Below, piece by piece: positions 5,400 through 57,005 of a stretch of DNA of 64,000 nt. The notes under the pieces are model-generated. The model saw only the letters and a program-made list of their open reading frames with translations, was not told the origin of the DNA and made no database searches. The DNA lies in NCBI GenBank assembly GCA_045658425.1, contig JAZOVB010000231.1, positions 1,284 to 65,283 of the forward strand, read 5' to 3'. The DNA is from Clostridia bacterium. GTDB lineage: Bacteria > Bacillota > Clostridia > UMGS1840 > HGM11507. The position numbers and the translations under genes were made by a program. Each line of letters opens with the position of its first letter. The first letter of the stretch is position 1.

Positions 5400-6365
5400 A
5401 TGAAATTTGTTAATTTTGACATAGAAAACAAGGTGTTTTTAGCCCCAATGGCAGGAATTACCGATTTAGCTTTCCGTACTGTCTGCCGTGATTACGGGGC
5501 TTCTTTGTGCTACTCGGAAATGATAAGTGCCAAAGGACTTTATTTCAAGGATAAGAAAACAAAAGATTTACTTCTTACAAACTCTTATGACTCTCCCCTG
5601 ATTGTGCAGATTTTCGGAAATGATCCTCATATTATATCCGAAGGAGTTAAGATAGTTGCAGATATGGGATTTAAAATGATTGATATCAACAGCGGTTGCC
5701 CTGCACCAAAAATCGTAAACAACAATGAAGGCTCGGCTTTAATGAAAAATCCTACTCTTTTAGGTAAAATAACAGAAGCGGCGGTTAAGGCAACCCATCT
5801 TCCAGTTTCGGTTAAAATAAGGTCAGGCTTTACAGCCAACAGCATAAACGCAGTTGAATGTGCAAAAATTATTGAAAATTCAGGGGCAAGTGCCATTACG
5901 GTTCATGGAAAAACAAGAGAACAGTTTTATTCGGGGGATGCCGATTACGAAATTATAAAAGCAGTTAAAGAAATGGTTAAAATCCCCGTTATTGCAAACG
6001 GTGAAATTCACAATCCCGAAGATTGCGACAAGGTATTAAAAGCAACAGGCTGTGATTTTGCTATGGTGGGAAGATCGGCACTTGGCAATCCTTTTATTTT
6101 TGAACAGATGAAAGACTATTTTACTAAAGGAACATATAAGGAAAATTACAGTGTTGAAGAAAGACTTAATACACTTTTAAAACAGGCAGCTCTTACAACC
6201 GAATATAAAGGTGAATATCGGGCAGTGTTAGAAGCAAGAAAGCATATTGCCTGGTATTTAAAGGGAATTAAAAATTCAAAAAACTACCGAATGAGAGCAA
6301 ACACGGTGGGAAGCATGGAAGAAATAAAGAATTTATGTGATGAAATAAACAATGAATGCAAATAA
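5400..6365 (+). CDS. dusB: tRNA-dihydrouridine synthase
   Basis: 321 aa. LAPMAGITDLAFR, INSGCPAPKI (catalytic Cys), VHGKTREQFYSG. Confidence 0.9.
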   Translation: MKFVNFDIENKVFLAPMAGITDLAFRTVCRDYGASLCYSEMISAKGLYFKDKKTKDLLLTNSYDSPLIVQIFGNDPHIISEGVKIVADMGFKMIDINSGCPAPKIVNNNEGSALMKNPTLLGKITEAAVKATHLPVSVKIRSGFTANSINAVECAKIIENSGASAITVHGKTREQFYSGDADYEIIKAVKEMVKIPVIANGEIHNPEDCDKVLKATGCDFAMVGRSALGNPFIFEQMKDYFTKGTYKENYSVEERLNTLLKQAALTTEYKGEYRAVLEARKHIAWYLKGIKNSKNYRMRANTVGSMEEIKNLCDEINNECK

Positions 6366-6385
6366 TAAAAGCTATATATTAAAAA

Positions 6386-6410
6386 ACCTGAAGCTTATAC
6401 AGTTTCAGGT
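6386..6410. terminator. bidirectional terminator between dusB and the ECF S-component gene
   Basis: ACCTGAA...TTCAGGT stem flanked by an A-run (6381-6386) and a T-run (6410-6415), between convergent genes. Confidence 0.7.
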
Positions 6411-45693: not shown

Positions 45694-46404
45694 TTAATAA
45701 CAGTTTGGTCTTACCGCAAAACCAAAACCACCCGTTGTGATTACCACATTATTTGCTCCTGATGAACAATGAATAACAAGTATGTTTCCGCTACTATCTC
45801 TGCCACTAATAATGCCGATATGTGATTTATCATCATATACCGCTAAATCTCCCGGTTGTGCAGAACTCCACGAAATGCGAGTTCCTTTTGAAGCCTGAGT
45901 GCTTGCACCATGACCGATTGCGGATTCTGAAAAACCTGCGTTATGAAATGCCCAGGTTACAAAACCTGAGCAATCAAGTCCAAAAGGTCGCATACATCCG
46001 GTAGAACGACTACCTTCAGAAGTAACAAGTTTCATCTTGCCCCATTCAGAATCCCAACCTATCGCAGAAGATTTTCCGCCCCAAAAGTATGTAAGTTTAC
46101 CTACAAGAGAGCAGGATTTCTTTACAACATTTTTTCTTTCTGCATATAAGCTATCAGGAAGGTTATCAATAACATCTTGAGCTGTTGCATCAGAGATCGC
46201 AAGACTTTGAGTAGTTCCTATAAACCCGTCTGCATTTTCAAGCAGAGTTTCAAGAGCTTCTTTTTGTTTTCGTGTAAAGCCATATTGTGAAACCATTTGG
46301 TCTTTCGTTTTTGCGGTAATTGTGATATACAAAACAATTTCGCTTGTTTCTCCGCTTGTCACAGTTTCAGTTCTTTTTGTAATTGTATGCATATCCCAAA
46401 ACAC
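45694..46404 (-). CDS. NlpC/P60 (C40) cell-wall hydrolase of ICE type (Tn916 Orf14-like), 5'-truncated
   Basis: Catalytic GLDCSGFVTWAF and downstream SHIGII/VIHCSS. Homology with the 23-kb paralog starts abruptly at DVFWDMH (46404). The only available start is a GTG with no N-terminal or signal region. Confidence 0.65.
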   Translation of the reverse strand: MFWDMHTITKRTETVTSGETSEIVLYITITAKTKDQMVSQYGFTRKQKEALETLLENADGFIGTTQSLAISDATAQDVIDNLPDSLYAERKNVVKKSCSLVGKLTYFWGGKSSAIGWDSEWGKMKLVTSEGSRSTGCMRPFGLDCSGFVTWAFHNAGFSESAIGHGASTQASKGTRISWSSAQPGDLAVYDDKSHIGIISGRDSSGNILVIHCSSGANNVVITTGGFGFAVRPNCY

Positions 46405-46420
46405 ATCTTTCTGTAATTCT

Positions 46421-46679
46421 TCATAATCCTAATATCAATCTTCTTGCAATTATGAATAAGCTATTATCCACCGATGGAATATCTCTTGAAAGAGGATCTT
46501 TCATATATTCAACATCGGGATTAAAGTTAGGATTTACAGATTGATAAATCATATTTCGTGCATTGAACTCGGCTTCAGCATAAGTGATTTTGCCGGATTT
46601 ATAATCTTCAATTACAGGAGCAATAATTGTTCTGCCTTTTTCAATATTACTTGCATAAAAATCAGAATATCAGAACATC
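46421..46679 (-). pseudogene. 3' fragment of an ICE conjugation-module gene (longer copy of 15762..15930)
   Basis: The frame is open only from a TGA at 46680-46682. Reads YSDFYASNIEKGRTIIAPVIEDYKSGKITYAEAEFNARNMIYQSVNPNFNPDVEYMKDPLSRDIPSVDNSLFIIARRLILGL*. No start codon. Confidence 0.6.
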
Positions 46680-46697
46680 TCCTGATATTACAAAAAG

Positions 46698-46729
46698 AGA
46701 GCTAACTGACATCTAAATCAGTTAGCTCT
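46698..46729. terminator. hairpin downstream of guaA-end relic C
   Basis: AGAGCTAACTGA/TCAGTTAGCTCT, a perfect 12-bp stem with an 8-nt loop and A/T runs on both sides. Confidence 0.65.
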
Positions 46730-46841
46730 TAATTTTTAATATTTAATATTTAATGTTGCCAAATTGTTGCCATTTTTATTTCAAAATGCCCGAAAGTGGC
46801 GTGGTTATGCGGTGTTCGCTCCGCGATTCGTTATTCCCACT

Positions 46842-46877
46842 CGCGGTATTATGTAGGTTTGAAAACTGCGTAATATA
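46842..46877 (-). pseudogene. relic C of a guaA 3' end (..YREWE-stop)
   Basis: Minus strand reads CGC GAG TGG GAA TAA (stop at 46842-46844); the 13-mer is identical to relic B. Upstream it reads FKPT*YREWE, against PKPIGTIEWE in the real gene. Confidence 0.45.
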
Positions 46878-46904
46878 GCGGTTTGTGGGCTTTTTAACCC
46901 GAAA

Positions 46905-46928
46905 TGTAGTCAAATTTGTGGTCAAAAA
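46905..46928 (+). repeat. attL core (direct repeat)
   Basis: TGTAGTCAAATTTGTGGTCAAAAA matches 57047-57070 at 23/24. The flanking sequences are unrelated. Confidence 0.7.
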
Positions 46929-47233
46929 TTATATTGAACATTATAACACATTATAAAAAGATATGCAAGCATAATTTATTATGTTTGTATATCTCAAATA
47001 TAGGCGGGTTTACTCACCCCAAAGTGCGAAGCACTATTTTTTTAGTATGGCGGGGTTTACCTCGTCTGCTGAAAAAATCTCTCCTTGCTCGCACTCTATA
47101 CAAAACTCACTTGTTAGGTTGCCCCTTGAAAGAGTTAAGGGGAAACCTTATCACACTAAAATATATTACACTACCTTTTATTTGGAAGGGGTTTTGATAC
47201 CATACATCTATACTACATTACATAAAATAAAAA

Positions 47234-47397
47234 TACACTCTGCACACTCTATAAAATACTGTATTTATGCAGAGAAAAATTTACATAAAATTTATCATGT
47301 AGAAAGGGCGGGGTCACGGGTGTAGTGAAACATCAGCCGTGACCCCGCCCTTTCTATAAACTGCATTATACAGTAGTTTTAAAGGACGCAGAGTGTA
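47234..47397. other. 164-nt nested inverted repeat with a perfect 19-bp GC-rich core hairpin (candidate oriT, ncRNA or protein-binding site)
   Basis: Core AGAAAGGGCGGGGTCACGG (47301-47319) / CCGTGACCCCGCCCTTTCT (47337-47355) with a 17-nt loop. Outer arms TACACTCTGC (47234-47243) / GCAGAGTGTA (47388-47397), plus ACTGTAT..ATGCAG pairs. No U-tract on either strand. Confidence 0.5.
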
Positions 47398-47494
47398 ACA
47401 ATATTATTTTTATATATTCTTTTTAAATTAGAACACCTATGTTACATGCAACCAGTACAACCTTTATGCTATTTTTGTTTCTACTTTCCTGATT

Positions 47495-49114
47495 TTATTT
47501 TGTATATAAGCAAACTGTATTAGAATAATTATTCCAATCGACCACTATATCAAATGCTTCTGATATTGCTCTAACTGGAACAAGAGTTCTGCCACCAATT
47601 ATTTGTGGTGTAACATCTAATTCGACTTGTTTTTCATTTATAGTCATTATTTTATTGTTTATTTGCATTTTAATTGTTGTATTATCTTTGTTCGCAACAA
47701 TACTTTGGTCTGCTTCATTCCATACTACTGTTGCCCCAATTTCCTCAAAGATTTTTCTTAAAGGAACCATCGTTCTACCATTTATAATTGTCGGGCTTTG
47801 GTCAAATGTCAAATACTTGGTATTTAACTTAACTTTTACGCCACCTAAATCATTAAGTACAAACAAACTTAATGGCGAAGTGCTATTGACAAAAACTCCA
47901 TCTAACACCCCAGTCGTATAATACATTGCCGAAGTAATAGCATTAAAATTCTCGTCGAGTATTTGCATGCCTTTTGCAAGACCACAATAAAGATATTTCC
48001 CGCCTTGCACAGTTTTTATCTGTCCATTATATACTTTTTTTGTTAAAACATTCATTGTATAATAATTATATTTGCTATCTCTTAGACAAATATATTTTCC
48101 GTTATCCAATAACATATCAGTATAAAGCATACCTGTTGTGATGTATTCAAGTGGTAAAATGAACTCACCTTCCTTGTCGACAACACCAATTTTTTTATTA
48201 ACTCCTACGACAAACACATCACCATTTAATGTCGGGTAAATCTCGTCCCATTTCCCAAAATCTACAACTATATTTCCATTAAAATCATATACTGCACTTG
48301 TTCCTTTATCTTTTTTGAAAGTAATGTATTTATCGAAAATTTGATAGTTTATTCTGTTTTCTGTTCGATAGATTTCTTTTCCGTTCATATTATATACAAT
48401 AAAATCACCAAAATTAGTAGATAATACTATAAAATTATTGTCTATATAAACATCTCTTTCATCCCAAGTGGAACTTTCAACATTAAATTTCAAATTGCCA
48501 TCTATATCAAAAACTTTCAATCGATTTGTATCGTTTTCAGACACAATTTTGCCAATCACTTTATCGTTAGCGAAGTGTACTGCCCCATTTTCACTACCTA
48601 TTTTTTTTGAAATATCCTGACCTTTAAAGTTGTATACACTATTGTTTGAGCCTGTAAAGAATGAATAATAGCCATCAGTTATTGCCAACAACTCTTCGTT
48701 AACTATATTTTCATATTTGTTATTTACTATATAAGCTCTTGTGCCATAAGAGTTATGATGAAATACACCAAAGTTGCCTTTCTTTACATACTCTGCTGTT
48801 GTATCCCAATGCTTATATACTTTTTCATTTTTATGATTTATAAAATACAATTCATTATCAACAGTTGTAACAAGACACAATCCGTCATTGAATTGTTTTA
48901 CGCTTTTATATTCGCATGGAATAACGATATTCCCATATACATCTATAAAACCACATCTATTATAGGTAGTATCTACAACAGAATACATTCCTTCTGCACA
49001 TCTAAAAACATTAAGTTCCAAAGTGCTGTTCTGCACAGAATGAAATTCATCACTTGCAAAAACATTTCCGCATAAAATCATACAAACAATTAAAAAACTT
49101 ATAATTCTTTTCAT
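47495..49114 (-). CDS. secreted WG-repeat protein with a C-terminal copper-amine-oxidase-N-like (stalk) domain
   Basis: 539 aa with a signal peptide. Repeated hydrophobic-G-(F/V)ID..G motifs (CGFIDVYGNIVIP, IGVVDKEGEFILP). The C-terminal INGRTMVPLRKIFEEIGATVVWN...IGGRTLVPVRAISEAFD is stalk-like. Confidence 0.6.
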   Translation of the reverse strand: MKRIISFLIVCMILCGNVFASDEFHSVQNSTLELNVFRCAEGMYSVVDTTYNRCGFIDVYGNIVIPCEYKSVKQFNDGLCLVTTVDNELYFINHKNEKVYKHWDTTAEYVKKGNFGVFHHNSYGTRAYIVNNKYENIVNEELLAITDGYYSFFTGSNNSVYNFKGQDISKKIGSENGAVHFANDKVIGKIVSENDTNRLKVFDIDGNLKFNVESSTWDERDVYIDNNFIVLSTNFGDFIVYNMNGKEIYRTENRINYQIFDKYITFKKDKGTSAVYDFNGNIVVDFGKWDEIYPTLNGDVFVVGVNKKIGVVDKEGEFILPLEYITTGMLYTDMLLDNGKYICLRDSKYNYYTMNVLTKKVYNGQIKTVQGGKYLYCGLAKGMQILDENFNAITSAMYYTTGVLDGVFVNSTSPLSLFVLNDLGGVKVKLNTKYLTFDQSPTIINGRTMVPLRKIFEEIGATVVWNEADQSIVANKDNTTIKMQINNKIMTINEKQVELDVTPQIIGGRTLVPVRAISEAFDIVVDWNNYSNTVCLYTK

Positions 49115-49206
49115 TTAAAAATCTCCTTACATTTTTAATATGTTTTATACACACTTTTTCACGAAAAAACACTTATACTCCTTTCAATTTCCCATAAATT
49201 AAAAAA

Positions 49207-49233
49207 GGTGTGCAACTACCGAAGCTGCACACC
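49207..49233 (-). terminator. terminator between the Rep-like and WG-repeat genes
   Basis: GGTGTGCA/TGCACACC stem. The A6 run at 49201-49206 gives a minus-strand U-tract. Confidence 0.55.
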
Positions 49234-49495
49234 GAAAAATGCAAACTCCGATTTGTTGTCACACAAAATTAAAAATAGGGCGAAATATACTTATTTACAT
49301 ACCGCTACTTGTGAAATTTGCATTTTTGCCAATTCAATATGTAACGATATGCAAATAAAAGGGTATAATACCCCCTTAACAAAAAAACAAGTAATTTCGC
49401 TATTTGATTTTTAATTTCATGTGACATATAGTATTATACCACCAAATGCGGAGAAATACAATATAAAATATAATTTTCGCAAATTACCGAACGAA

Positions 49496-50263
49496 TTAAA
49501 CTGTTATTCGTTTGTCAAGATATTCAATAAGCATTTTTTTAAAATACTTTATCGGGTCGGCATTTTCGCTTTTTTCCTTAAATTCTGTATATTTATCAAA
49601 CAAGGCTATCAACTTCTTAGCCGTCAAGTATTTCAGTTTGTATTTATGCGGAGAATCAAACACACTTATTATTCCCGCACGCATAAATAACAAACGCAGA
49701 TATGCGGGCTGTGATAATATTTCTATATACTCGTCTGTCAAATTAATTTCAAGCCTTTTAAATACTCGCTGTAATTCTTCTTGTTCTTCCATTCCAAAAT
49801 CTATGCTTGAAATATAATCTTTCAGTCCTTGTATTTTATTATTATATATTTTATTATTTGTGTTAAAATTTTTGTCCTCTTGTGGTGCAGATTTTTTATT
49901 ACTTGTTGTTAAAAAATTTAACTGCTGTAAATTCTGCGGGTTTTGTCTCGCTTTTTCTAATTTGTCGAATAATTTTGAAATACTTTCAAAATTGATTTTA
50001 AAATGTCTTTTGGCGGGTATTCCCTTTGATACAACATATAAAACATTAAGCTCTGCAAGTGTATTTATTGCCTTTCTTTGTTCGTGTCCTGACAGACAAG
50101 TTTCATTTTCTAAATGCTCAACAGTAGAGTAAAAGTAGCCGTCCTCTGTCAATGTTCCTTTATCTTTATAATAATTATATTCACTTATTAACTGCATAAG
50201 CAAGACGGTTGCATTTATGCCGTATTGCTTTTGCAAGTGGTTTGTTAATATGCCAATACCCAC
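49496..50263 (-). CDS. replication-initiator/replisome-organizer-like winged-helix protein (RepA_N-like); the 5' end is possibly frameshifted (true start may be 50302)
   Basis: GINATVLLMQLISEYNYYKDKGTLTEDGYFYSTVEHLENETCLSGHEQRKAINTL resembles Firmicute RepA_N/DnaD-like initiators. The track start is a GTG. A 41-aa ORF from ATG 50302 with a GGGGGAAT RBS encodes the expected N-terminus in another frame. Confidence 0.55.
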   Translation of the reverse strand: MGIGILTNHLQKQYGINATVLLMQLISEYNYYKDKGTLTEDGYFYSTVEHLENETCLSGHEQRKAINTLAELNVLYVVSKGIPAKRHFKINFESISKLFDKLEKARQNPQNLQQLNFLTTSNKKSAPQEDKNFNTNNKIYNNKIQGLKDYISSIDFGMEEQEELQRVFKRLEINLTDEYIEILSQPAYLRLLFMRAGIISVFDSPHKYKLKYLTAKKLIALFDKYTEFKEKSENADPIKYFKKMLIEYLDKRITV

Positions 50264-50527
50264 CCTGTGATAATGTGTATGTTAAAATATTTTCACAACT
50301 CATTTTTATTCCCCCTTAAAAACTCAACGCCTTAAAATGCGTTTTAACAGCTTTTCTAAAACTTTTAATATAAAATTATACCTCGCATATAAAAAGGCAA
50401 TAATATGCCTTTTTGTGCCTTTAAAATGCACAGTATTTTTCGTGTGAATTATATAATAAAATATTAAATAATACAACAATTTAGTAAAAAGTTTTGAAAA
50501 GTTGTTCTAACTGCTAACAAAAAAATT

Positions 50528-50560
50528 ATAGCAGTAGGTCTCATTTATGCCTACTGCTAT
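50528..50560 (-). terminator. terminator of the J-domain gene
   Basis: ATAGCAGTAGG/CCTACTGCTAT, a perfect 11-bp stem 7 nt after the stop. The A-run at 50519-50525 gives the U-tract. Confidence 0.75.
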
Positions 50561-50566
50561 TTTGAT

Positions 50567-51082
50567 TTATGCGGTTTTATTTTCTAGTTTGTCTGTACCT
50601 TTGCTGTATGCTTTACCGCTTGTACCATACATTTCACGAATTTCGTCAAACTCATAATTTTTACGGCTTTTACATCTGTAATTTTCAGGTTTTAGAAACC
50701 ACGCTGTTTTTTTACTGTGCCATTGAAATTTTAATTCTTTCAACTTATCTTTGTACGCTTTGGTGTTTCCTGTTACCCACACGAAACAACCGATAATTTC
50801 GATTTCTATATCGTCCATTTTCATTAACTCATTTATTAAGTCTTTGAATTGGTCGGATGTTTCTGTTGATGTCTGTTTCGCCGTATAAGTTTCACCATCT
50901 TTCGTTTGATGTATGTCTTTGAGAAATTTAAACAGCTTGTCATATTCATTGTTGACAGCTTTCATTTTCTCGGCATCACCGCCTTTGTCGGGGTGGTGCA
51001 TAAATACCAACTTTCTATATTGCTTTTTTAACTCTTCTAGCGTTTTTGGTGTTGGTGTAAAATAATTTAAAACTTCTCTCAT
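50567..51082 (-). CDS. J-domain protein (DnaJ-like co-chaperone domain only) carried by the mobile element
   Basis: 171 aa. LKKQYRKLVFMHHPDKGGDAEKMKAVNNEYDKLF carries the HPD tripeptide. The C-terminal half has no Zn-finger or CTD of true DnaJ. Confidence 0.8.
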   Translation of the reverse strand: MREVLNYFTPTPKTLEELKKQYRKLVFMHHPDKGGDAEKMKAVNNEYDKLFKFLKDIHQTKDGETYTAKQTSTETSDQFKDLINELMKMDDIEIEIIGCFVWVTGNTKAYKDKLKELKFQWHSKKTAWFLKPENYRCKSRKNYEFDEIREMYGTSGKAYSKGTDKLENKTA

Positions 51083-51092
51083 TTCAATTCCT

Positions 51093-51288
51093 CCTATACT
51101 TTGAATTTTTAAATATTAAGTTGTCAATGTTCGTAGCAATATAAAAACACGATCAAAAAAGACAAGTCAACAGAAACATGGAATAACGAAGCAAAGCGAG
51201 TATATGCCGTGAAAGTCTGTTTACTTGGCTTTTTGCCGTGTTATCTTGCAAGCAGAACATGACACAATAGTTAAAAATTGAGTATAGG
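51093..51288. other. ~200-nt imperfect hairpin covering the whole leader of the J-domain gene; its base abuts the SD
   Basis: Paired segments include CCTATACT (51093-51100)/AGTATAGG (51281-51288), AATTTTTAA/TTAAAAATT, TTGTCAATGTTC/GAACATGACACAA, AACACG/CGTGTT, CAAAAA/TTTTTG, CAAGT/ACTTG and AACAGA/TCTGTT. The SD GGAGG is the complement of 51090-51094. Confidence 0.6.
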
Positions 51289-51324
51289 AAATTATGATAA
51301 GTTTTGTTTTTATACAAACAAAAA

Positions 51325-51347
51325 CAGGCGTATAAATTAAACGCCTG
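51325..51347 (-). terminator. terminator of the M48 protease gene
   Basis: CAGGCGT/ACGCCTG stem 18 nt after the stop, followed on the minus strand by TTTTTGTTTG. Confidence 0.6.
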
Positions 51348-51364
51348 CTTTCGATAGTTTATAT

Positions 51365-52270
51365 TTATGCCCTACACATATTTTCAAGAGCTTCTATTCT
51401 AAAAGCTGTTTTCGGGTGTGATGATTGCAATTTTTCAAGCAAATTTCTCTTGTCTGATATTTCCATATCATAAAATTTATACAAGGCTGACAATAAGGCT
51501 TCGCCGTACCCTAATTCAAAAGCTACTTTGTCTGCTCTGTATTCTTCTTTACGACTTGTAGAAGATACTATAATTGTTAGAAACATCATTGCATATTTTA
51601 ACCCAATACTTAAAATGTTTTTCAAAAAGCCTATAAGACTTCCAAAGAAAGAGTTATCGCCTAGCATAATTTGTAACATCTGCAACACCTTTACAAAAAT
51701 CATTACACCCCCAAAGTACACATTAGAGGCTAGCGATACAAAAACTGACACCTGCCCGTCTCCGTTTATAATATGACCGATTTCGTGAGATATAACAGCC
51801 TCTATTTCTTCGTCATTCATTGTTTCCATTAGTCCACGAGTAACTGCTATTGTATGTCTGCCAATGGCAAAAGCATTTACATTTACGCTGTCTACAATAT
51901 ATAATTTTAATTCATAATCTATCATTTTGCTATATGCTGTGCCACGCTCTTTTACACTTTCAAATATATTTAAAAGCCTTTCTTTTTCCGTATCTGTCGC
52001 AATATGTCTCACATCATATATCGCCCTCAAAATATACTCGGGCAAATTTGTCAAACAAAGTATTATAAGCAATATGTAAATCATAGCCAAAGTTATATTT
52101 ACACTTATAGGTAATTGAATATTAAACCAAAACAAAAAATAACTTGCTATTAGTAACAATAGTAACCGAGGTCTAACGGCAAAAATTGTAAATGGGTTTG
52201 GCTCAGGTTTACCTCTGTGCTCTTCTGGAATAAGTAAAACTTTTTCTAAATTTTGTATAATTTTTGACAT
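51365..52270 (-). CDS. M48-family (HtpX-like) membrane zinc metalloprotease
   Basis: 301 aa. HEIGHIINGD (HExxH), N-terminal and central TM segments, C-terminal EYRADK. Confidence 0.8.
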   Translation of the reverse strand: MSKIIQNLEKVLLIPEEHRGKPEPNPFTIFAVRPRLLLLLIASYFLFWFNIQLPISVNITLAMIYILLIILCLTNLPEYILRAIYDVRHIATDTEKERLLNIFESVKERGTAYSKMIDYELKLYIVDSVNVNAFAIGRHTIAVTRGLMETMNDEEIEAVISHEIGHIINGDGQVSVFVSLASNVYFGGVMIFVKVLQMLQIMLGDNSFFGSLIGFLKNILSIGLKYAMMFLTIIVSSTSRKEEYRADKVAFELGYGEALLSALYKFYDMEISDKRNLLEKLQSSHPKTAFRIEALENMCRA

Positions 52271-52285
52271 AATATAAATTCTCCC

Positions 52286-53530
52286 TTAAAATGGTTTTAT
52301 AACTTTTATTTTTTCACATCTCCCGTCATCCCTTGACAGAAAAACGCCCTCGCCTTTTTTAAACGATTTGATTTCGTCAGGGTGTACAATAAATTCTCGT
52401 ACTCGTTTTGCTGTCCCCATACCTGTTTCTTCTCTTTGATTTAACTGATATGTTAACTGCATCTTTTCATGTGTTCCCAAGGTTTTCGACCATTCCTCAG
52501 CACTCCTAAAACTGTTTTGCCTCATAATGACATAATTGTTGCAATTTTCTATAATCTGATGTTTAAACGCTTCACCTACTGCTGATTCAAGGTCCGCAAG
52601 ACTTTGCGTTGCACATACACAAGTAACACCTGCACTTCTGCTCTTGTTGATTAAGTCAATAAGCACAGAAGAAGCATATACATTTATTTCGTCAAAGACA
52701 AAGAAACTACGATGGTTGCTGTTGAATAATTGGCTCACAGCTTTTTTGCTGTCTATCAAAATTAAACGCCCCAAAGCCTGTGATGTTTCAGGGTAGATTA
52801 GTGGGTTTAAAATAAAAAGTATTACCGCACCAGTTTTCAACGCTGAATATATATCTATTCCATTTTCGTCAAAGATTTCTCCCATCTCACTTTCTGCAAT
52901 TGTTGCAAATCGTGCTGAAGCCTGTTCTGTTATTTTTCCACTTGCTTTTATTAAATGTAAATTTTCAATATGATTTTCTTTTGTTATCAAACTATTTTTT
53001 TGTAAAACGGCTGATAAACTTTCAAAATTATCTGCTGACATATTTTGAATTATTGATTTGAAAGACAACGGAATTTCTGCAATATTCATTAGCTTTACAA
53101 CTCGCTGTATGTATCTTTCTGTATTGGTTTTATAATGTGGTTCGCTCCATTCCGTCATGTTTATCAACATATCTTTTGCAACGGTTTCTGTTGCATTTTT
53201 AAGTGGGTTATACTTTGCAGATTTTGTAGGCTCGTTCATATTGATTACATAAAGCGGTCTGTTATGCCTTTCACAAAATGCCTTTGTGATTTCATACATA
53301 GAACCTTGTCCTGTATCTCCTTTTTCGTCAACTAACAACAATCCTATACCTTTTTCGATGCTGTGCAAAATAAAATTTGATAATAATACAGTTTTACCCG
53401 CTCCCGTTGTACCTGATACAAAAATGTGTTTTGCGTTATCAGGACAATATATAGCCTTTTTTAATCTTGTATAACCAATTAAAGTTGAATTTTCTTTATT
53501 AACAGGACTACTCATATAATCTACCCCCAT
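52286..53530 (-). CDS. TraG/TraD/VirD4-like coupling-protein ATPase domain (soluble part)
   Basis: 414 aa. Walker A VSGTTGAGKTV, Walker B FFVFDEINVYA, CATQSLADL. No TM segments of its own. Confidence 0.65.
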   Translation of the reverse strand: MGVDYMSSPVNKENSTLIGYTRLKKAIYCPDNAKHIFVSGTTGAGKTVLLSNFILHSIEKGIGLLLVDEKGDTGQGSMYEITKAFCERHNRPLYVINMNEPTKSAKYNPLKNATETVAKDMLINMTEWSEPHYKTNTERYIQRVVKLMNIAEIPLSFKSIIQNMSADNFESLSAVLQKNSLITKENHIENLHLIKASGKITEQASARFATIAESEMGEIFDENGIDIYSALKTGAVILFILNPLIYPETSQALGRLILIDSKKAVSQLFNSNHRSFFVFDEINVYASSVLIDLINKSRSAGVTCVCATQSLADLESAVGEAFKHQIIENCNNYVIMRQNSFRSAEEWSKTLGTHEKMQLTYQLNQREETGMGTAKRVREFIVHPDEIKSFKKGEGVFLSRDDGRCEKIKVIKPF

Positions 53531-53948
53531 TTGCTGTAAATTTCCGCTCTAATGACATAATTCCCGCTTGTTCTTTTTTGCGGTTGTACCTCATACGCTT
53601 TACTGTGTATGAGGCAACTGCAAAAGATACCGCCGTTAATATAAACCAGCTTGTCAAACTATATTGACTATAAACCGATATATTAAAATTATGGTTTAAA
53701 AGCCCTTTGACAAGAGCAACGGCAACTTGTGTTGTTTCTTCTAAAAACACCCCCATTTTAGTACATAATATTACAAACAACACAACACAAGGAAACAACA
53801 CAAAGTTTTCTTTTCTGTCTGTTCTCAACATCAAAAAAACAAACAAAATATTAAATGGTAATATCGGTAAACATATCAATATTGCAAGTGCCGATATTAT
53901 CACATCAAAAACAGTAATCTGCTTTTGTTCTTTAAACTCTTCTGACAT
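53508..53948 (-). CDS. small integral membrane protein (possible membrane anchor of the coupling ATPase)
   Basis: 146 aa with 3-4 hydrophobic helices. Its 3' end overlaps the ATPase gene start by 23 nt. Confidence 0.5.
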   Translation of the reverse strand: MSEEFKEQKQITVFDVIISALAILICLPILPFNILFVFLMLRTDRKENFVLFPCVVLFVILCTKMGVFLEETTQVAVALVKGLLNHNFNISVYSQYSLTSWFILTAVSFAVASYTVKRMRYNRKKEQAGIMSLERKFTANGGRLYE

Positions 53949-54558
53949 ATTCCATCACCTTTTCTAACGGCGTTATTTTTACGCCATATTTTTCACCTAT
54001 AACTTTTACATTATCAACAACCTTTTGTCTGTCGCTTGGAATAAACCAAAGCTGAAAATCAAAAATTTTGTAATTATTCTTTATATTCTTTTCAAGAGTT
54101 ATTGGCTTTTTTGCTGACAACTCAATTTCTACGCAATAGATTTTATAGTCTTTTGTATATTCAAAGTCGGGAAAGTGTTTAGGATTACCAAACCCCGCTT
54201 TATGTTTCATTTCTCGTTCAGTTGTAATGCTTGATTTTTCTACACCCTCATTATTTATCAAATATATAGCGGTATCAATTACAGCTATATCATGCGTTAT
54301 CTGTTCTATTCTTACATTCGGGGTGTAATATTCCAAGTCAAGCAATCTTTCTGCTCTTTTTGTAACAAAATAAAGTCTTGGAACGCCATACAAAAAATGC
54401 TTTCTTTCTATATAGCCTGCTTCTATCAGCTTTTTTAATCTCCTATCACATGCACGCTGACCGCTAAAACCACATAAGACTTTTATTTGTCTTGAAAGTA
54501 AAAAACGCCATTTTTGAATTTCTTTAATAATAGCTATATCTCTTTCCATTAAAACCAT
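53932..54558 (-). CDS. replication-relaxation (Replic_Relax) family protein
   Basis: 208 aa. RDIAIIKEIQKWRFLLSRQIKVLCGFSGQRACDRRLKKLIEAGYIER is the winged-helix N-terminus typical of the family. Confidence 0.65.
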   Translation of the reverse strand: MVLMERDIAIIKEIQKWRFLLSRQIKVLCGFSGQRACDRRLKKLIEAGYIERKHFLYGVPRLYFVTKRAERLLDLEYYTPNVRIEQITHDIAVIDTAIYLINNEGVEKSSITTEREMKHKAGFGNPKHFPDFEYTKDYKIYCVEIELSAKKPITLEKNIKNNYKIFDFQLWFIPSDRQKVVDNVKVIGEKYGVKITPLEKVMEYVRRV

Positions 54559-54571
54559 ATAAAACCACCTT

Positions 54572-54745
54572 TCAAATTTCGCTTTCGTTTAAATATTCGA
54601 TAAATTTTTCATAATTTATCAAATATTTCGCCCCTGCTTTACGATAGACAATTTTGTCTTGTAAACACAATTGCCTTATGTAATGCACGGCTAAACCTGT
54701 CCGTTTTGCTGTTTCTTTAATTGTCAACATCGTTGGTACTGTCAT
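54572..54745 (-). CDS. excisionase-family HTH protein (Xis-like)
   Basis: 57 aa, below the track cutoff. My translation is MTVPTMLTIKETAKRTGLAVHYIRQLCLQDKIVYRKAGAKYLINYEKFIEYLNESEI. GGGAGGGG RBS upstream. Confidence 0.6.
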   Translation of the reverse strand: MTVPTMLTIKETAKRTGLAVHYIRQLCLQDKIVYRKAGAKYLINYEKFIEYLNESEI

Positions 54746-54795
54746 AACATTTCCCCTCCCTTCATAATTTCAACAAGCCACCAAGTAAATTATTG

Positions 54796-54824
54796 TTGAC
54801 TTGTTTTCGTTTTTAGTATATAAT
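54796..54824 (+). promoter_or_regulatory. sigma-A-type promoter for the XRE/integrase unit, with a flanking 9-bp inverted repeat
   Basis: TTGACT (54796-54801), 17-nt spacer, TATAAT (54819-54824). GTTGACTTG overlaps the -35 and its complement CAAGTCAAC lies at about 54842-54850. Confidence 0.55.
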
Positions 54825-54913
54825 AATTATAGACATAATTCAAGTCAACTAAAATATTTATAAATCACCAAAAGATATTAATAGTAAATTATAATTAACG
54901 AAAGGAATTGAAA

Positions 54914-55573
54914 ATGGATACCAAACTCACAGCAAAACGGCTTAAAAAACTAAGAAAAGAAGCAGGGTATTCTCACGAACGCTTAGCTGCAACTCTAATA
55001 GAAAAATATAACATAAAGATTACGCCCGCATCATTAAAAAAATATGAAATTTCAGAACAACCACATAGCAATTATGGTGCTGTAAAAGGTATGCGTATTG
55101 AGTATCTATATATGTTTGCCGATTTTTACAATGTATCAAGTGACTATATTTTAGGTTTTACAAATTCTACAAATAGAAATATAACAGCAAAACACATTAC
55201 AGATAAAACAGGCCTTTCAAGTAAAGCAGTTGAAAATTTAGAAATGCTATATAAAACAGAAGTTGGGTGCATACCGCCTTATTTAGTTATTGACTATATG
55301 CTATCAAATCAAGAGTTTATAGAAAACTACCCCAATACAATAATTAGCTATTATCTTGCTAAAAAAATGAGTGATAAAAAATTTAACACTTCAACACCTG
55401 AATATTATAATACCCAATGGAACATTGAAAGCATAGAATTCAAAAAATATTTATCAATACAACGAATGGAACGCTTAATTGATAACTTTTATAATAATTA
55501 TGTTAATTATGATATTGAAGAGGAACTATCGTTATTGAGAAAGGATGAAGAAGATGGCAATGAAAATGAATAG
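54914..55573 (+). CDS. XRE-family HTH regulator (element repressor-like)
   Basis: LTAKRLKKLRKEAGYSHERLAATL plus the following helix. ATG 54914 follows AAAGGA; the track starts at TTG 54908. Confidence 0.7.
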   Translation: MDTKLTAKRLKKLRKEAGYSHERLAATLIEKYNIKITPASLKKYEISEQPHSNYGAVKGMRIEYLYMFADFYNVSSDYILGFTNSTNRNITAKHITDKTGLSSKAVENLEMLYKTEVGCIPPYLVIDYMLSNQEFIENYPNTIISYYLAKKMSDKKFNTSTPEYYNTQWNIESIEFKKYLSIQRMERLIDNFYNNYVNYDIEEELSLLRKDEEDGNENE

Positions 55574-57005
55574 CGGTTTGCCGTCAGGCGTTTCTGCTGT
55601 AAAAGACCGCCCCGGTCTTTATCGTATCAGATGTGCAGTACACGGCAAAAATTACAGCGAATATTACAGAACAGAAGAAATAAGCAAAAAGAAACTGCAA
55701 AGTGAACTGCAAAAGGTTGTTGACTCATTCAAGGAACGAATTGAGTGTGGAATGCTTAAAAATAATGACATAAGCGAAAAAAGTACATTTGAGCAAGCTG
55801 TTGAATGGTTTGTTAATATGCGAAAACTCAACATTCGGGAAAGCACACAACTAACCGACAAATTTATTTTTGAGCATTATCTTATCCCCCGCATTGGCAA
55901 GTATAAACTTAAAGAAATAACCTCGCCTATGGTTACAAAGCTATTAGCAGAGCTGTTGGAAAAAGGCGGTGGCGGGCGGGCTACATATAATGCAAAACCC
56001 GAATTTATAGAATTAATGCACGAAAGAAAACCCAAAAGAACTGACGGCGGTTTTAATCTTGTTGCTCGGGAAATAGGTATAAATGAAGATACTACATTTA
56101 TAAGAGTAAGAAAAGGCGGGAACTGTAACGAAGATGTTGCAAAAAGAGTTGCTAAATATTACGGCGTATCACTTGGCACAGCCTTTGACAAAAAAGAAGA
56201 TATAAAACCGTTGTCGGCTTCTTATGTTTCAAAAATCACTTACACGCTGTCAGCCCTTTTCACAGCTTGCGTTAAAAATGGCGTTTTACTTACTAACCCT
56301 GTTGCCAATGCGACAAAACCCCGCATTGGCGAAATGGATATACCCCCATATCTTGATAATACAACTATACCAATATTCTTAAATGCACTAAATGAAATCA
56401 ATATTGATAATTCAATATGCGTTTCACTGATACTGATGTTAATGCTTGGTTTGAGAAGCGGGGAAGCTCGGGCGTTGCGTTGGGTAGATGTTGACTTTAA
56501 TTCAAATGTTGTCAGCATTGAAAAGAATGTAGGCGATACATTCAACGGGTTAGCCTTAACCGATTTGAAAACAAAAAGGTCAAGGCGTAAATTACCACTT
56601 TCGCCGTTACTAAAAGATATATTATTAAACCATAAAAATATATTAGATAAAAAAGCCGACCAACATGGAAAAACTTGGAACAAAAACGGTGTCATATGTC
56701 CTAACGCAATGGGCGGGCTAATGGAAAAGGCTGTGCCGAATAAGGCGATAAAAAAGATATTGAACAAAAATAAAGAATTACCCCAAGGGCTTCATGCTCA
56801 TTCTTTACGGCATAGTTTTGTATCTTTGCTAATTTCAAACGGTCTTGATGTTGTAAATGTTGCCTCACTTGCGGGTGATACAATAGAAATTATAAGCAAA
56901 CATTATGCCCATAGTTTTGCAGAGCGTAGAGCCGCCGCAATGAATATTGTCGGCGACTCGTTCGCACAACTTAATAACAGCAACAATTATTTAAAAATTT
57001 CATAA
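55545..57005 (+). CDS. int: tyrosine site-specific integrase with an ~80-aa insertion in the core-binding region
   Basis: 486 aa. LRSGEARALRW (Arg I), HSLRHSF (H-x-x-R), ISKHYAH (catalytic Tyr). N-terminal arm-binding-like GLYRIRCAVHGKNYSEYY. Confidence 0.9.
   Translation: MKKMAMKMNSGLPSGVSAVKDRPGLYRIRCAVHGKNYSEYYRTEEISKKKLQSELQKVVDSFKERIECGMLKNNDISEKSTFEQAVEWFVNMRKLNIRESTQLTDKFIFEHYLIPRIGKYKLKEITSPMVTKLLAELLEKGGGGRATYNAKPEFIELMHERKPKRTDGGFNLVAREIGINEDTTFIRVRKGGNCNEDVAKRVAKYYGVSLGTAFDKKEDIKPLSASYVSKITYTLSALFTACVKNGVLLTNPVANATKPRIGEMDIPPYLDNTTIPIFLNALNEINIDNSICVSLILMLMLGLRSGEARALRWVDVDFNSNVVSIEKNVGDTFNGLALTDLKTKRSRRKLPLSPLLKDILLNHKNILDKKADQHGKTWNKNGVICPNAMGGLMEKAVPNKAIKKILNKNKELPQGLHAHSLRHSFVSLLISNGLDVVNVASLAGDTIEIISKHYAHSFAERRAAAMNIVGDSFAQLNNSNNYLKIS

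Follow-up and report, generated by a model that had tools for sequence, protein, structure and literature searches.

A hairpin with a conserved apex module upstream of a J-domain gene in a Clostridia mobilizable element is a candidate single-stranded DNA promoter

Introduction

What is the role of a hairpin of about 200 nucleotides (nt) that makes up the entire leader of a J-domain protein gene? The question is raised by a 64-kb stretch of DNA from a Clostridia bacterium (GenBank assembly GCA_045658425.1, contig JAZOVB010000231.1, positions 1,284 to 65,283; hereafter the window). In an integrated mobilizable element in this window, the spacer between an M48 peptidase gene (51365-52270, minus strand) and a J-domain gene (50567-51082, minus strand) forms one long interrupted stem-loop on both strands. 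A first-pass annotation, made from the sequence without database searches, had offered two readings, namely an RNA leader that sequesters the Shine-Dalgarno (SD) sequence and the start codon of the J-domain gene, or a promoter on transferred single-stranded DNA (ssDNA) of the Frpo type known from the F plasmid.

Early expression from incoming ssDNA is emerging as the way in which conjugative elements get past host defences, and the ssDNA promoters responsible for it have so far been defined almost only in enterobacterial plasmids. The Frpo/ssi (class 1) promoters of F and ColIb-P9 (Masai and Arai 1997; Couturier et al. 2023, PMC9849209) are long hairpins of the transferred strand. They rebuild a -35 and a -10 element, from which early genes are expressed, and can also serve to prime DNA synthesis. 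In the IncI1 plasmid pESBL, a class 3 ssDNA promoter was described upstream of the methylase gene of M.EcoGIX, with zygotic induction, a start mapped by 5' rapid amplification of cDNA ends (5'-RACE) and conservation in F (Wen et al., NAR 2025, PMC12672017). This promoter has been used as a portable ssDNA promoter under the name ssp3 (Fraikin et al., preprint 2026). A BLAST-based survey found no Frpo-like elements in Gram-positives (PMC11541004).

Here, we propose that the hairpin acts as a promoter on ssDNA, and perhaps as a site of priming as well, and that it would express the J-domain protein early, while the plus strand is single-stranded. We estimate the probability of this reading at about 0.7.

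Results

Fold of the hairpin

The region 51060-51330 was folded on both strands and compared to dinucleotide shuffles, as the first-pass annotation had suggested. As RNA, the minus strand (the mRNA sense) yielded a minimum free energy of -68 kcal/mol (-44.6 +/- 4.5 for 200 shuffles, z = -5.15). As ssDNA, the same strand yielded -41 kcal/mol (z = -5.84) and the plus strand -46.9 kcal/mol, the latter with the best z-score of the three folds (z = -7.15). In all three cases, the number of shuffles folding as well as the native sequence was 0.

The DNA fold of 51070-51310 contains 92 pairs, whose pair probability averages 0.87. Its basal pairs are 51089:51290 and 51092-51094:51287-51289 and its apex lies at about 51186-51199, in agreement with the base (51093/51288) and the apex (51182-51206) annotated before. 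The multiple paired blocks were recovered by a repeat finder at the places claimed for them, including 51092-51100/51281-51289 (9/9) and 51156-51174/51216-51234 (89%). Folding and repeat finding thereby bear out the imperfect hairpin of about 200 nt that had been described at 51085-51295. The SD sequence GGAGG (complement of 51090-51094) is present at its base, ahead of the start codon of the J-domain gene at 51082-51080 (Table 1).

A conserved module at the apex

When the hairpin was searched against plasmids by blastn, only the apex gave distant matches, located in unannotated DNA of Parageobacillus and Alkalihalophilus plasmids. The arms flanking the apex in these plasmids differ in sequence yet stay self-complementary. 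The apex is a structured core of about 45 nt (CGTGGAATAnCGnAnCnnAGnGAnnATATGCCGnGAAAG) with four covarying helices. An exact-pattern scan for GGAATANCGNANCNNAGNGANNATATG identified at least 120 genome loci in Bacillota, Actinomycetota, Bacteroidota and a few other groups; the scan sampled one-genome-per-species contigs and the count is a lower bound. The pattern was also found on 19 IMG/VR contigs.

We built an ungapped alignment (A3) of 47 diverse copies, consisting of 46 loci from the genome scan and the window's own 79-nt core as first row, and derived a covariance model (R1) from it. The match of the model at 51156-51234 is the sole one in the window, and its score of 75.9 bits arises partly by construction, because the window core is the first row of the model. 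The covariation test in homologues, another check proposed with the first-pass annotation, supports P1 (a variable stem), P2, P3 with a bulged A, and P4. Among the 47 copies, 75% of the cells were paired, compared to 63% in column shuffles and 30-41% with slid partners, and the covariation score was 0.36 versus 0.15 (reached by 0/500 shuffles). At positions that are free in the search pattern or outside of it, pair 23-55 among 110 unique copies was GC in 69, TA in 15, CG in 15 and AT in 5, and pair 31-46 was CG in 94, AT in 9 and GC in 7. The T:G wobble of P2 (T at column 24) was found in 108/110 unique copies and pair 19-61 is G:T in 13/47 copies. The T:G wobble and the G:T pairs form on the motif strand (plus) only and turn into A.C mismatches on the complement, which is the mRNA sense here.

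Neither the whole window nor any of 10 related loci contained an Rfam family at the gathering score, and matches around the hairpin at E <= 10 were at chance level. A literature search with the core as text string returned unrelated primers only.

Relation to class 3 promoters and Frpo

The covariance model detected one match in the 18-kb leading region of F (NC_002483 53989-54080, minus strand, 52.8 bits, E = 9e-13) and one match in the whole 88.5-kb pESBL (54605-54696, minus strand, 45.1 bits). Both lie on the transferred strand, which is complementary to the leading genes, at 86 nt upstream of a DNA methylase gene, and coincide with the location of the class 3 promoter (PMC12672017). Because the model matches F and pESBL at that promoter, the apex of the window hairpin joins a validated ssDNA-promoter family: judged from these matches, it belongs to the family of the class 3/ssp3 promoter.

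The apex module P1-P4, including the T:G wobble, is common to the window, F and pESBL. In all of them, the core is located on the template strand of the adjacent gene, whose start lies about 75-100 nt 5' of the module: the J-domain gene (minus) begins 74 nt 5' of the model match (plus), compared to 86 nt in F and pESBL. The systems also differ in several respects. The host is a mobilizable element of a low-GC member of the Bacillota here and an enterobacterial conjugative plasmid there, and the putatively driven gene encodes a J-domain protein here and a methylase there. P4 is a 2-bp stem with triloop in the window, whereas F and pESBL carry a 16-nt insertion, and the window has one regular 200-nt hairpin where the F region has a branched fold.

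We considered homology to Frpo and rejected it, since blastn of the hairpin against the leading regions of F and pESBL yielded nothing at Frpo1/2, where the model reached <=8 bits with filters off. The only blastn match in F and pESBL was a 20-nt core match (E = 0.046), which explains the failure of BLAST surveys in Gram-positives. The likeness to the Frpo/ssi promoters lies in the working principle, a long hairpin whose stem would reconstitute a promoter directed at the downstream gene, with extra bases in the template arm that create an unfavourable duplex spacing (21 nt) versus 16 nt in the hairpin. Its apex differs and has neither sequence nor model similarity to Frpo1 or Frpo2. We conclude that the window hairpin would work like Frpo and is not a member of the Frpo family. 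Of the Frpo-type promoter suggested by the first-pass annotation, the principle of a promoter on transferred ssDNA was retained and the homology was dropped.

In RefSeq, coding sequences annotated as 'hypothetical protein' upstream of the methylase genes (L133 3785-4090 in F and L143 9394-9705 in pESBL) overlap the ssp3 core on the opposite strand. These may be over-calls across a non-coding ssDNA promoter.

Proposed promoter geometry in the stem

The -35-like TTTACT (51220-51225) pairs with 51163-51170, the complement of which reads TTGACT. TTGAC was found 12-15 nt downstream of the core in 24/67 low-GC copies (0.23 expected from shuffles), and TTG stands at this offset in most low-GC copies. 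In the six tabulated copies linked to J-domain genes, the extended -10-like box follows TGT-TAnnTT in five and reads TGT-TTTAAT in the sixth (L003). Across the core family, -10-like hexamers occur at lineage-appropriate positions and are heterogeneous. TTTACT and TATCTT are mostly paired with the 5' arm.

We propose that the 200-nt hairpin would fold when the plus strand becomes single-stranded, either by conjugative entry or by rolling-circle displacement. Its stem would then rebuild a duplex promoter immediately below the conserved apex module (51177-51211), with the 3' arm as non-template strand providing TTTACT (51220-51225), a 16-nt spacer and TG-n-TATCTT (51239-51247). Host RNA polymerase would initiate within the stem, using the 5' arm as template, and transcription would exit via the hairpin base into the J-domain gene. 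Since such a transcript starts inside the stem and leaves through the base, the mRNA would carry a short unstructured leader with a free SD sequence; initiation opposite about 51127-51132 would give a one-armed 5' untranslated region (UTR) of about 45-50 nt. The same RNA may prime complementary-strand synthesis, and once the DNA is double-stranded the hairpin would no longer form. Promoter activity for the J-domain gene in this host and any priming role are presumed.

The first-pass annotation had suggested TTGCAA (51246-51251) and TAGTTA, 16 nt apart on the 3' arm, as a possible weak -35/-10 pair of the folded form. Both hexamers are present, are semi-conserved and could provide a second start, but the box that is conserved family-wide is the -35-like element right after the core. 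The statement that the J-domain gene has no convincing double-strand promoter did not hold, as a promoter scan identified TTGTCT-16-TATATT (9/12) at 51165-51138 on the minus strand. A better duplex -35, TTGACT (51170-51165, minus), lies 21 nt from TATATT; the cognate spacing is 21 nt in the duplex and 16 nt on the 3' arm because the 5' arm holds five extra bases.

J-domain genes with related hairpins

The core was present at all J-domain loci of the host-element type (7/7). In each of the six tabulated copies, the hairpin measures about 200 nt and extends to the SD complement, with distal arm sequences that differ. The J-domain proteins of these elements are 75-86% identical to that of the window, and the hairpin is found at the same position with compensatory changes. 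J-domain homologues in three other contexts (plasmid-like loci with rolling-circle Rep or resolvase) are without the core.

These homologues are preceded by even more stable template-strand hairpins of a different class (L138:4700-5000, L140:3527-3792 and L008:5700-6000, minus), for which z-scores of -8.7, -9.6 and -11.5 were obtained. Hairpins of this class have a branched apex; that of L140 carries TTGACG-16-TATAAT on the 3' arm, those of L138 and L008 have TATCCGCAGATAAAA in common, and the GTCAAGGGG/CCCCTTGAC stem recurs in L138. They are possibly another family of ssDNA promoters. Taking together the J-linked hairpins with the core and the core-less hairpins elsewhere, the J-domain family seems to be habitually placed behind ssDNA-type hairpins.

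Relation to single-strand origins

Integrative and conjugative elements (ICEs) of Bacillota are known to carry single-strand origins (sso; PMC4595007), and the model matched two of the ssoT type, those of pTA1060 (6345-6409, E = 0.0016) and pTA1040 (E = 0.008), with 20-22 bits. Both are functional origins related to sso1 of ICEBs1, and the coordinates and the strand of the matches agree with the published ones (PMC4595007). The first stem-loop of ssoT (pTA1060, pTA1040, pBAA1; sso1 of ICEBs1) has the P1 stem (GAGTCAAC/GTTGACTC vs AAGTCAAC/GTTTACTT) and the P3-P4 core ACCGGAnCGnAGnGAGGAT in common with the window hairpin, and both are strand-specific ssDNA structures in mobile elements of Bacillota. 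In contrast to the window core, ssoT is without P2 and without the RSB-like GCCGnGAAAG, its stem-loops II and III have no counterpart in the window hairpin, and it is not positioned for transcribing a gene. Given the weak scores, the similarity suggests a relationship between the window core and ssoT rather than membership.

The ssoA (palA) origins of pT181, pE194, pC194 and pMV158 carry RSB and CS-6, and RNA polymerase recognises the folded DNA and primes on it (Kramer et al. 1997-1999, as summarised in PMC5703833 and PMC4598088). A near-identical RSB box (TATGCCGnGAAA) forms the 3' half of the window core, and a CS-6-like nAGCGA stands in the apical region; many members of the core family have TAGCGA at this position. 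However, ssoA has RSB and CS-6 in a different arrangement with about 50 nt between them, whereas AAGCGA of the window lies 4 nt before the RSB-like box. We rejected membership in ssoA or ssoU: the RSB box alone is in common, the ssoA fold was not found, and the model matched none of pE194, pC194, pT181 and pUB110.

These similarities bear on the possibility that the hairpin is primarily a single-strand origin, at which RNA polymerase makes a short primer, with the J-domain gene transcribed from an ordinary duplex promoter in one arm. The ssoT matches, the RSB-like and CS-6-like boxes, the sso elements of Bacillota ICEs (PMC4595007) and the duplex promoter-like TTGTCT-16-TATATT in the 5' arm would all fit, and Frpo acts as both promoter and primer with in vivo support (Masai and Arai 1997, via PMC11541004). 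Nevertheless, we consider it rather unlikely, since the closest strong relatives are the documented gene promoters of F and pESBL (ssp3, 45-53 bits, compared to 20-22 bits and a missing P2 for ssoT), many lineages show a fixed geometry in which a gene starts about 75-150 nt 5' of the core, and no terminator separates the hairpin from the J-domain gene. The two functions do not exclude each other, and the distinction is more one of emphasis than of alternatives.

RNA-level explanations

If transcripts from the M48 operon or from an unseen promoter read through the spacer, they would fold the mirror hairpin and hide the SD sequence and the start codon, which would place the J-domain protein under translational control. 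The fold of the mRNA-sense RNA (z = -5.15) is compatible with such a leader, as is the pairing of the SD complement at the stem base, for which five homologues show equivalent pairing by different sequences. We nonetheless disfavour this reading of the first-pass annotation and regard it as improbable. Within the core, the conserved T:G and G:T pairs are possible on the plus strand only; in the mRNA they become C.A mismatches. Homologous cores occur in ssoT, which has no downstream gene to regulate, and ahead of dozens of unrelated genes from different phyla. The core of F and pESBL is on the template strand with the start mapped inside the structure, and a transcript begun inside the hairpin carries one arm only. 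Additionally, a terminator-like stem precedes the hairpin, and no Rfam family appears even at E <= 10. In the integrated state, the mirror RNA hairpin could still add a second layer of control by silencing read-through transcripts.

Covariation and wobbles show that the plus strand folds, not whether it does so as DNA or as RNA, which would also suit a plus-strand small RNA or cis-antisense RNA whose core folds as RNA. We judge this to be very unlikely, because neither promoter nor terminator was found for a plus-strand transcript, the sole plus-strand promoter-like match of the promoter scan near the hairpin (51271-51298) lying beyond the core, because Rfam gave no match, and because DNA-level functions have been demonstrated for the homologues ssoT (PMC4595007) and ssp3 (PMC12672017).

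Insertion sequences and other repeats

The core is multi-copy per genome in several thermophilic Bacillales (Anoxybacillus, Geobacillus, Parageobacillus, Caenibacillus, Alicyclobacillus) and linked to insertion sequences (ISs) there, and the window hairpin might likewise be the remnant or passenger of an IS or miniature inverted repeat without function for the host element. Against this stand the single copy in the window, the conserved position upstream of the J-domain genes with compensatory changes, and the lack of a transposase or target duplication at the hairpin, which leave this explanation with very little probability.

A group II intron or other retroelement was considered as well, for a core that is multi-copy, cross-phylum and often at contig ends. 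It was rejected because a search of 10 loci gave no Intron_gpII or D1D4 match and because the surroundings of the core are plasmid- or ICE-like.

The Bacillales copies sit within or at the ends of ISs, with both flanks conserved. At ten loci the core lies about 27 nt past the transposase open reading frame (ORF), and at three others 32-36 nt from the start of an ISL3 transposase, on the opposite strand. This suggests that IS elements captured an ssDNA-promoter/sso module in thermophilic Bacillales.

Genes next to the core

Among the matches listed, recurrent genes on the opposite strand start 30-370 nt 5' of the core. The distances are 82-91 nt for ParB-like genes (many Microbacteriaceae), 125-131 nt for ArdC, 141 nt for SSB, 73-75 nt for a 102-aa protein of Bacteroidota and 98 nt for the J-domain protein. 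RadC-like, SprT-like and DUF3560 genes (Pfam-supported) recur in the same position. ArdC, SSB, ParB-like, RadC and SprT-like proteins are typical leading-region families for establishment and anti-defence. At one locus, a UmuDC-like operon is located on the other side of the core in an orientation that cannot be transcribed from it, which matches the description of such operons in anti-defence islands (PMC11541004).

The Pfam scan of neighbours covered the recurrent opposite-strand set. The evidence for orientation rests on recurrent Pfam-supported genes at fixed distances, because a naive ORF count shows no significant bias (see below).

Host element and strand polarity

The gene content of the element (Table 1) includes a Replic_Relax protein. 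PF13814 constitutes the MOBC relaxase superfamily, members of which are paired with VirD4-type coupling proteins in integrative mobilizable elements (IMEs) of streptococci (PMC5357655). From its relaxase and coupling protein, the host element is therefore an IME, in line with the mobilizable element carrying a coupling-protein-like ATPase that had been proposed before. Its gene order recurs in four metagenomic relatives.

The relaxase gene has the motif strand as its template, an arrangement also seen in F and pESBL. By this analogy we infer that the plus strand is the transferred strand, which is the weakest link of the ssDNA promoter reading.

Within the element, 46405-47494 (about 1.1 kb) contains no ORF >114 aa and no Rfam match. 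It could hold an origin of transfer (oriT), a decayed gene or another non-coding feature.

The M48 terminator annotated at 51325-51347 is plausible by direct reading; with a loop of 11 nt, it escaped the scanning tool. The same loop length explains why the tool missed the stem at 50519-50558, just past the J-domain stop codon. With a terminator-like stem at this place, the J-domain gene would be a single-gene unit.

Table 1. Positions in the window of the hairpin, its parts and the genes of the host element
Feature	Position	Strand	Remarks
Whole imperfect hairpin	51089-51290	+	92 predicted pairs
Hairpin 5' arm	51089-51181	+	putative template arm; runs on into the J-domain gene
Hairpin 3' arm	51207-51290	+	putative non-template strand
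Apex module P1-P4 (R1 match)	51156-51234	+	75.9 bits, E = 1e-19
Conserved core CATGGAATAACGAAGCAAAGCGAGTATATGCCGTG	51177-51211	+	covariation counts
P2 of core	51177-81/51207-11	+	includes T51179:G51209 wobble
P3 of core	51183-87/51200-05	+	bulged A
P4 of core	51191-92/51196-97	+	2-bp stem with triloop
CS-6-like hexamer AAGCGA	51194-51199	+	P4 region; CS-6 is TAGCGT; resemblance only
RSB-like box TATGCCGTGAAAG	51203-51215	+	11/13 aligned positions match ssoA RSB TTATGCCGAGAAAATTT (PMC4598088)
-35-like TTTACT	51220-51225	+	3' arm; 13 nt after core, where the family has TTGAC(A)
Extended -10-like TG-T-TATCTT	51239-51247	+	3' arm; 16-nt spacer from TTTACT
Alternative promoter pair TTGCAA-16-TAGTTA	51246-51273 (TAGTTA 51268-73)	+	3' arm; semi-conserved; UTR would be about 18 nt
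Duplex sigma-70-like site TTGTCT-16-TATATT	51165-51138	-	promoter scan, 9/12; mirror of the hairpin promoter
Shine-Dalgarno GGAGG of J-domain gene	51090-51094 (CCTCC on +)	-	3/5 bases paired at stem base
J-domain protein gene, 171 aa	50567-51082	-	Pfam DnaJ E = 3.7e-6, PHROG 15863; 652 homologues
Terminator-like stem AGCAGTAGG/CCTACTGCT with T-run	50519-50558	-	just past J-domain stop codon; direct reading
Terminator-like stem CAGGCG/CGCCTG, then TTTTTGTTTG on -	51325-51330/51342-51347	-	direct reading and inverted repeat; separates M48 operon from hairpin
Host element, about 11 kb, integrated mobilizable	45694-57005		adjoins guaA 3' end; left boundary approximate
Tyrosine integrase	55545-57005	+	host element
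HTH regulator			host element
Xis-like HTH_17 protein			host element
Replic_Relax (PF13814) relaxase, MOBC-type	53932-54558	-	host element
Small membrane protein			host element
VirD4/TraD-type coupling protein	52286-53530	-	host element
M48 peptidase	51365-52270	-	host element
Replication-initiator O-like/DnaD-like protein, 255 aa	49496-50263	-	PHROG 9773, E = 1e-14
Cu_amine_oxidN1 wall protein			host element
NlpC/P60 hydrolase			host element

Discussion

Several observations weigh against an ssDNA promoter at this locus. Outside the apex the two strands fold nearly alike, with 3 G:T pairs each. Comparing whole hairpins, the plus strand is more stable in 5/6 J-linked homologues by 1-6 kcal/mol and the order is reversed in 1, so that whole-hairpin energies are not decisive for a strand preference outside the apex. 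The hexamers TTTACT and TATCTT are mediocre matches to the consensus (4/6 and 4/6, plus TG), and the F copy is not a simple long hairpin and does not allow its -35 and -10 to be placed by eye. The duplex promoter-like site on the sense strand means that the J-domain gene need not depend on the ssDNA form, and its alternative -35, TTGTCT at 16 nt, weakens the argument from Frpo-type spacing. With filters off, the model found nothing in pE194, pC194, pT181 (ssoA) or pUB110 (ssoU), so that no classical ssoA or ssoU was matched. No oriT or nick site was found in a search limited to reading the intergenic regions. Finally, when ORFs around 58 non-redundant cores were simply counted, the two orientations stood at 24 versus 15 at 20-200 nt and at equal numbers at 20-300 nt, with no significant orientation bias; this test is affected by high-GC genomes, which give spurious ORFs on all strands.

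The window hairpin is best placed in the family of class 3/ssp3 ssDNA promoters and has affinities to sso. For the window alone, this amounts to a well-supported annotation and not to a new kind of system, and the cross-phylum reading is the more interesting one. In that reading, the apex of about 45 nt would be a single ancient DNA-structure module, distributed from Enterobacteria to Bacillota, Actinomycetota and Bacteroidota, that recruits host RNA polymerase or another universal factor to the ssDNA of mobile elements. It would unite sso origins (RSB/CS-6, ssoT) with the class 3 promoters of F and IncI1 plasmids. Mobilizable elements, plasmids and even insertion sequences would use it to switch genes on exclusively in the single-stranded state. 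We put this forward tentatively, with a chance slightly short of even. No description of the cross-phylum core family, or of its bridging between sso and ssDNA promoters, was found in Rfam or the searchable literature.

A mobilizable element of the Clostridia type thus shares its structured core with the validated class 3 (ssp3) promoter, and the core offers a concrete link between sso origins and ssDNA promoters. For ICEs, IMEs and plasmids, irrespective of phylum, a model of the R1 type could serve as a practical, structure-aware marker of the transferred strand and of units of early genes. The J-domain co-chaperone is a new candidate early protein, which suggests that incoming elements recruit host Hsp70 at establishment.

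Additional observations

The J-domain co-chaperone is encoded just upstream of a replication-initiator-like protein, an arrangement that recalls DnaJ/DnaK-assisted loading of the replisome. The AT-rich spacer between these two genes (50264-50566, 303 nt) contains a strong promoter-like site, TAGGCA-17-TATAAT with TG (10/12), at 50553-50525 on the minus strand, overlapping the terminator-like stem of the J-domain gene.

One core-bearing contig labelled Vibrio cholerae (WNZI01000040.1) is high-GC and has core flanks close to those of Arthrobacter loci. Its relaxase is of the actinobacterial type, and the contig is probably a contaminant of that assembly.

Two cores occur 713 nt apart at a Prolixibacteraceae locus, and five IMG/VR contigs, classed as viral, carry two cores each, 688-713 nt apart. 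These tandem cores at a spacing of about 700 nt resemble the repeated ssDNA promoters ahead of successive small genes in leading-region islands.

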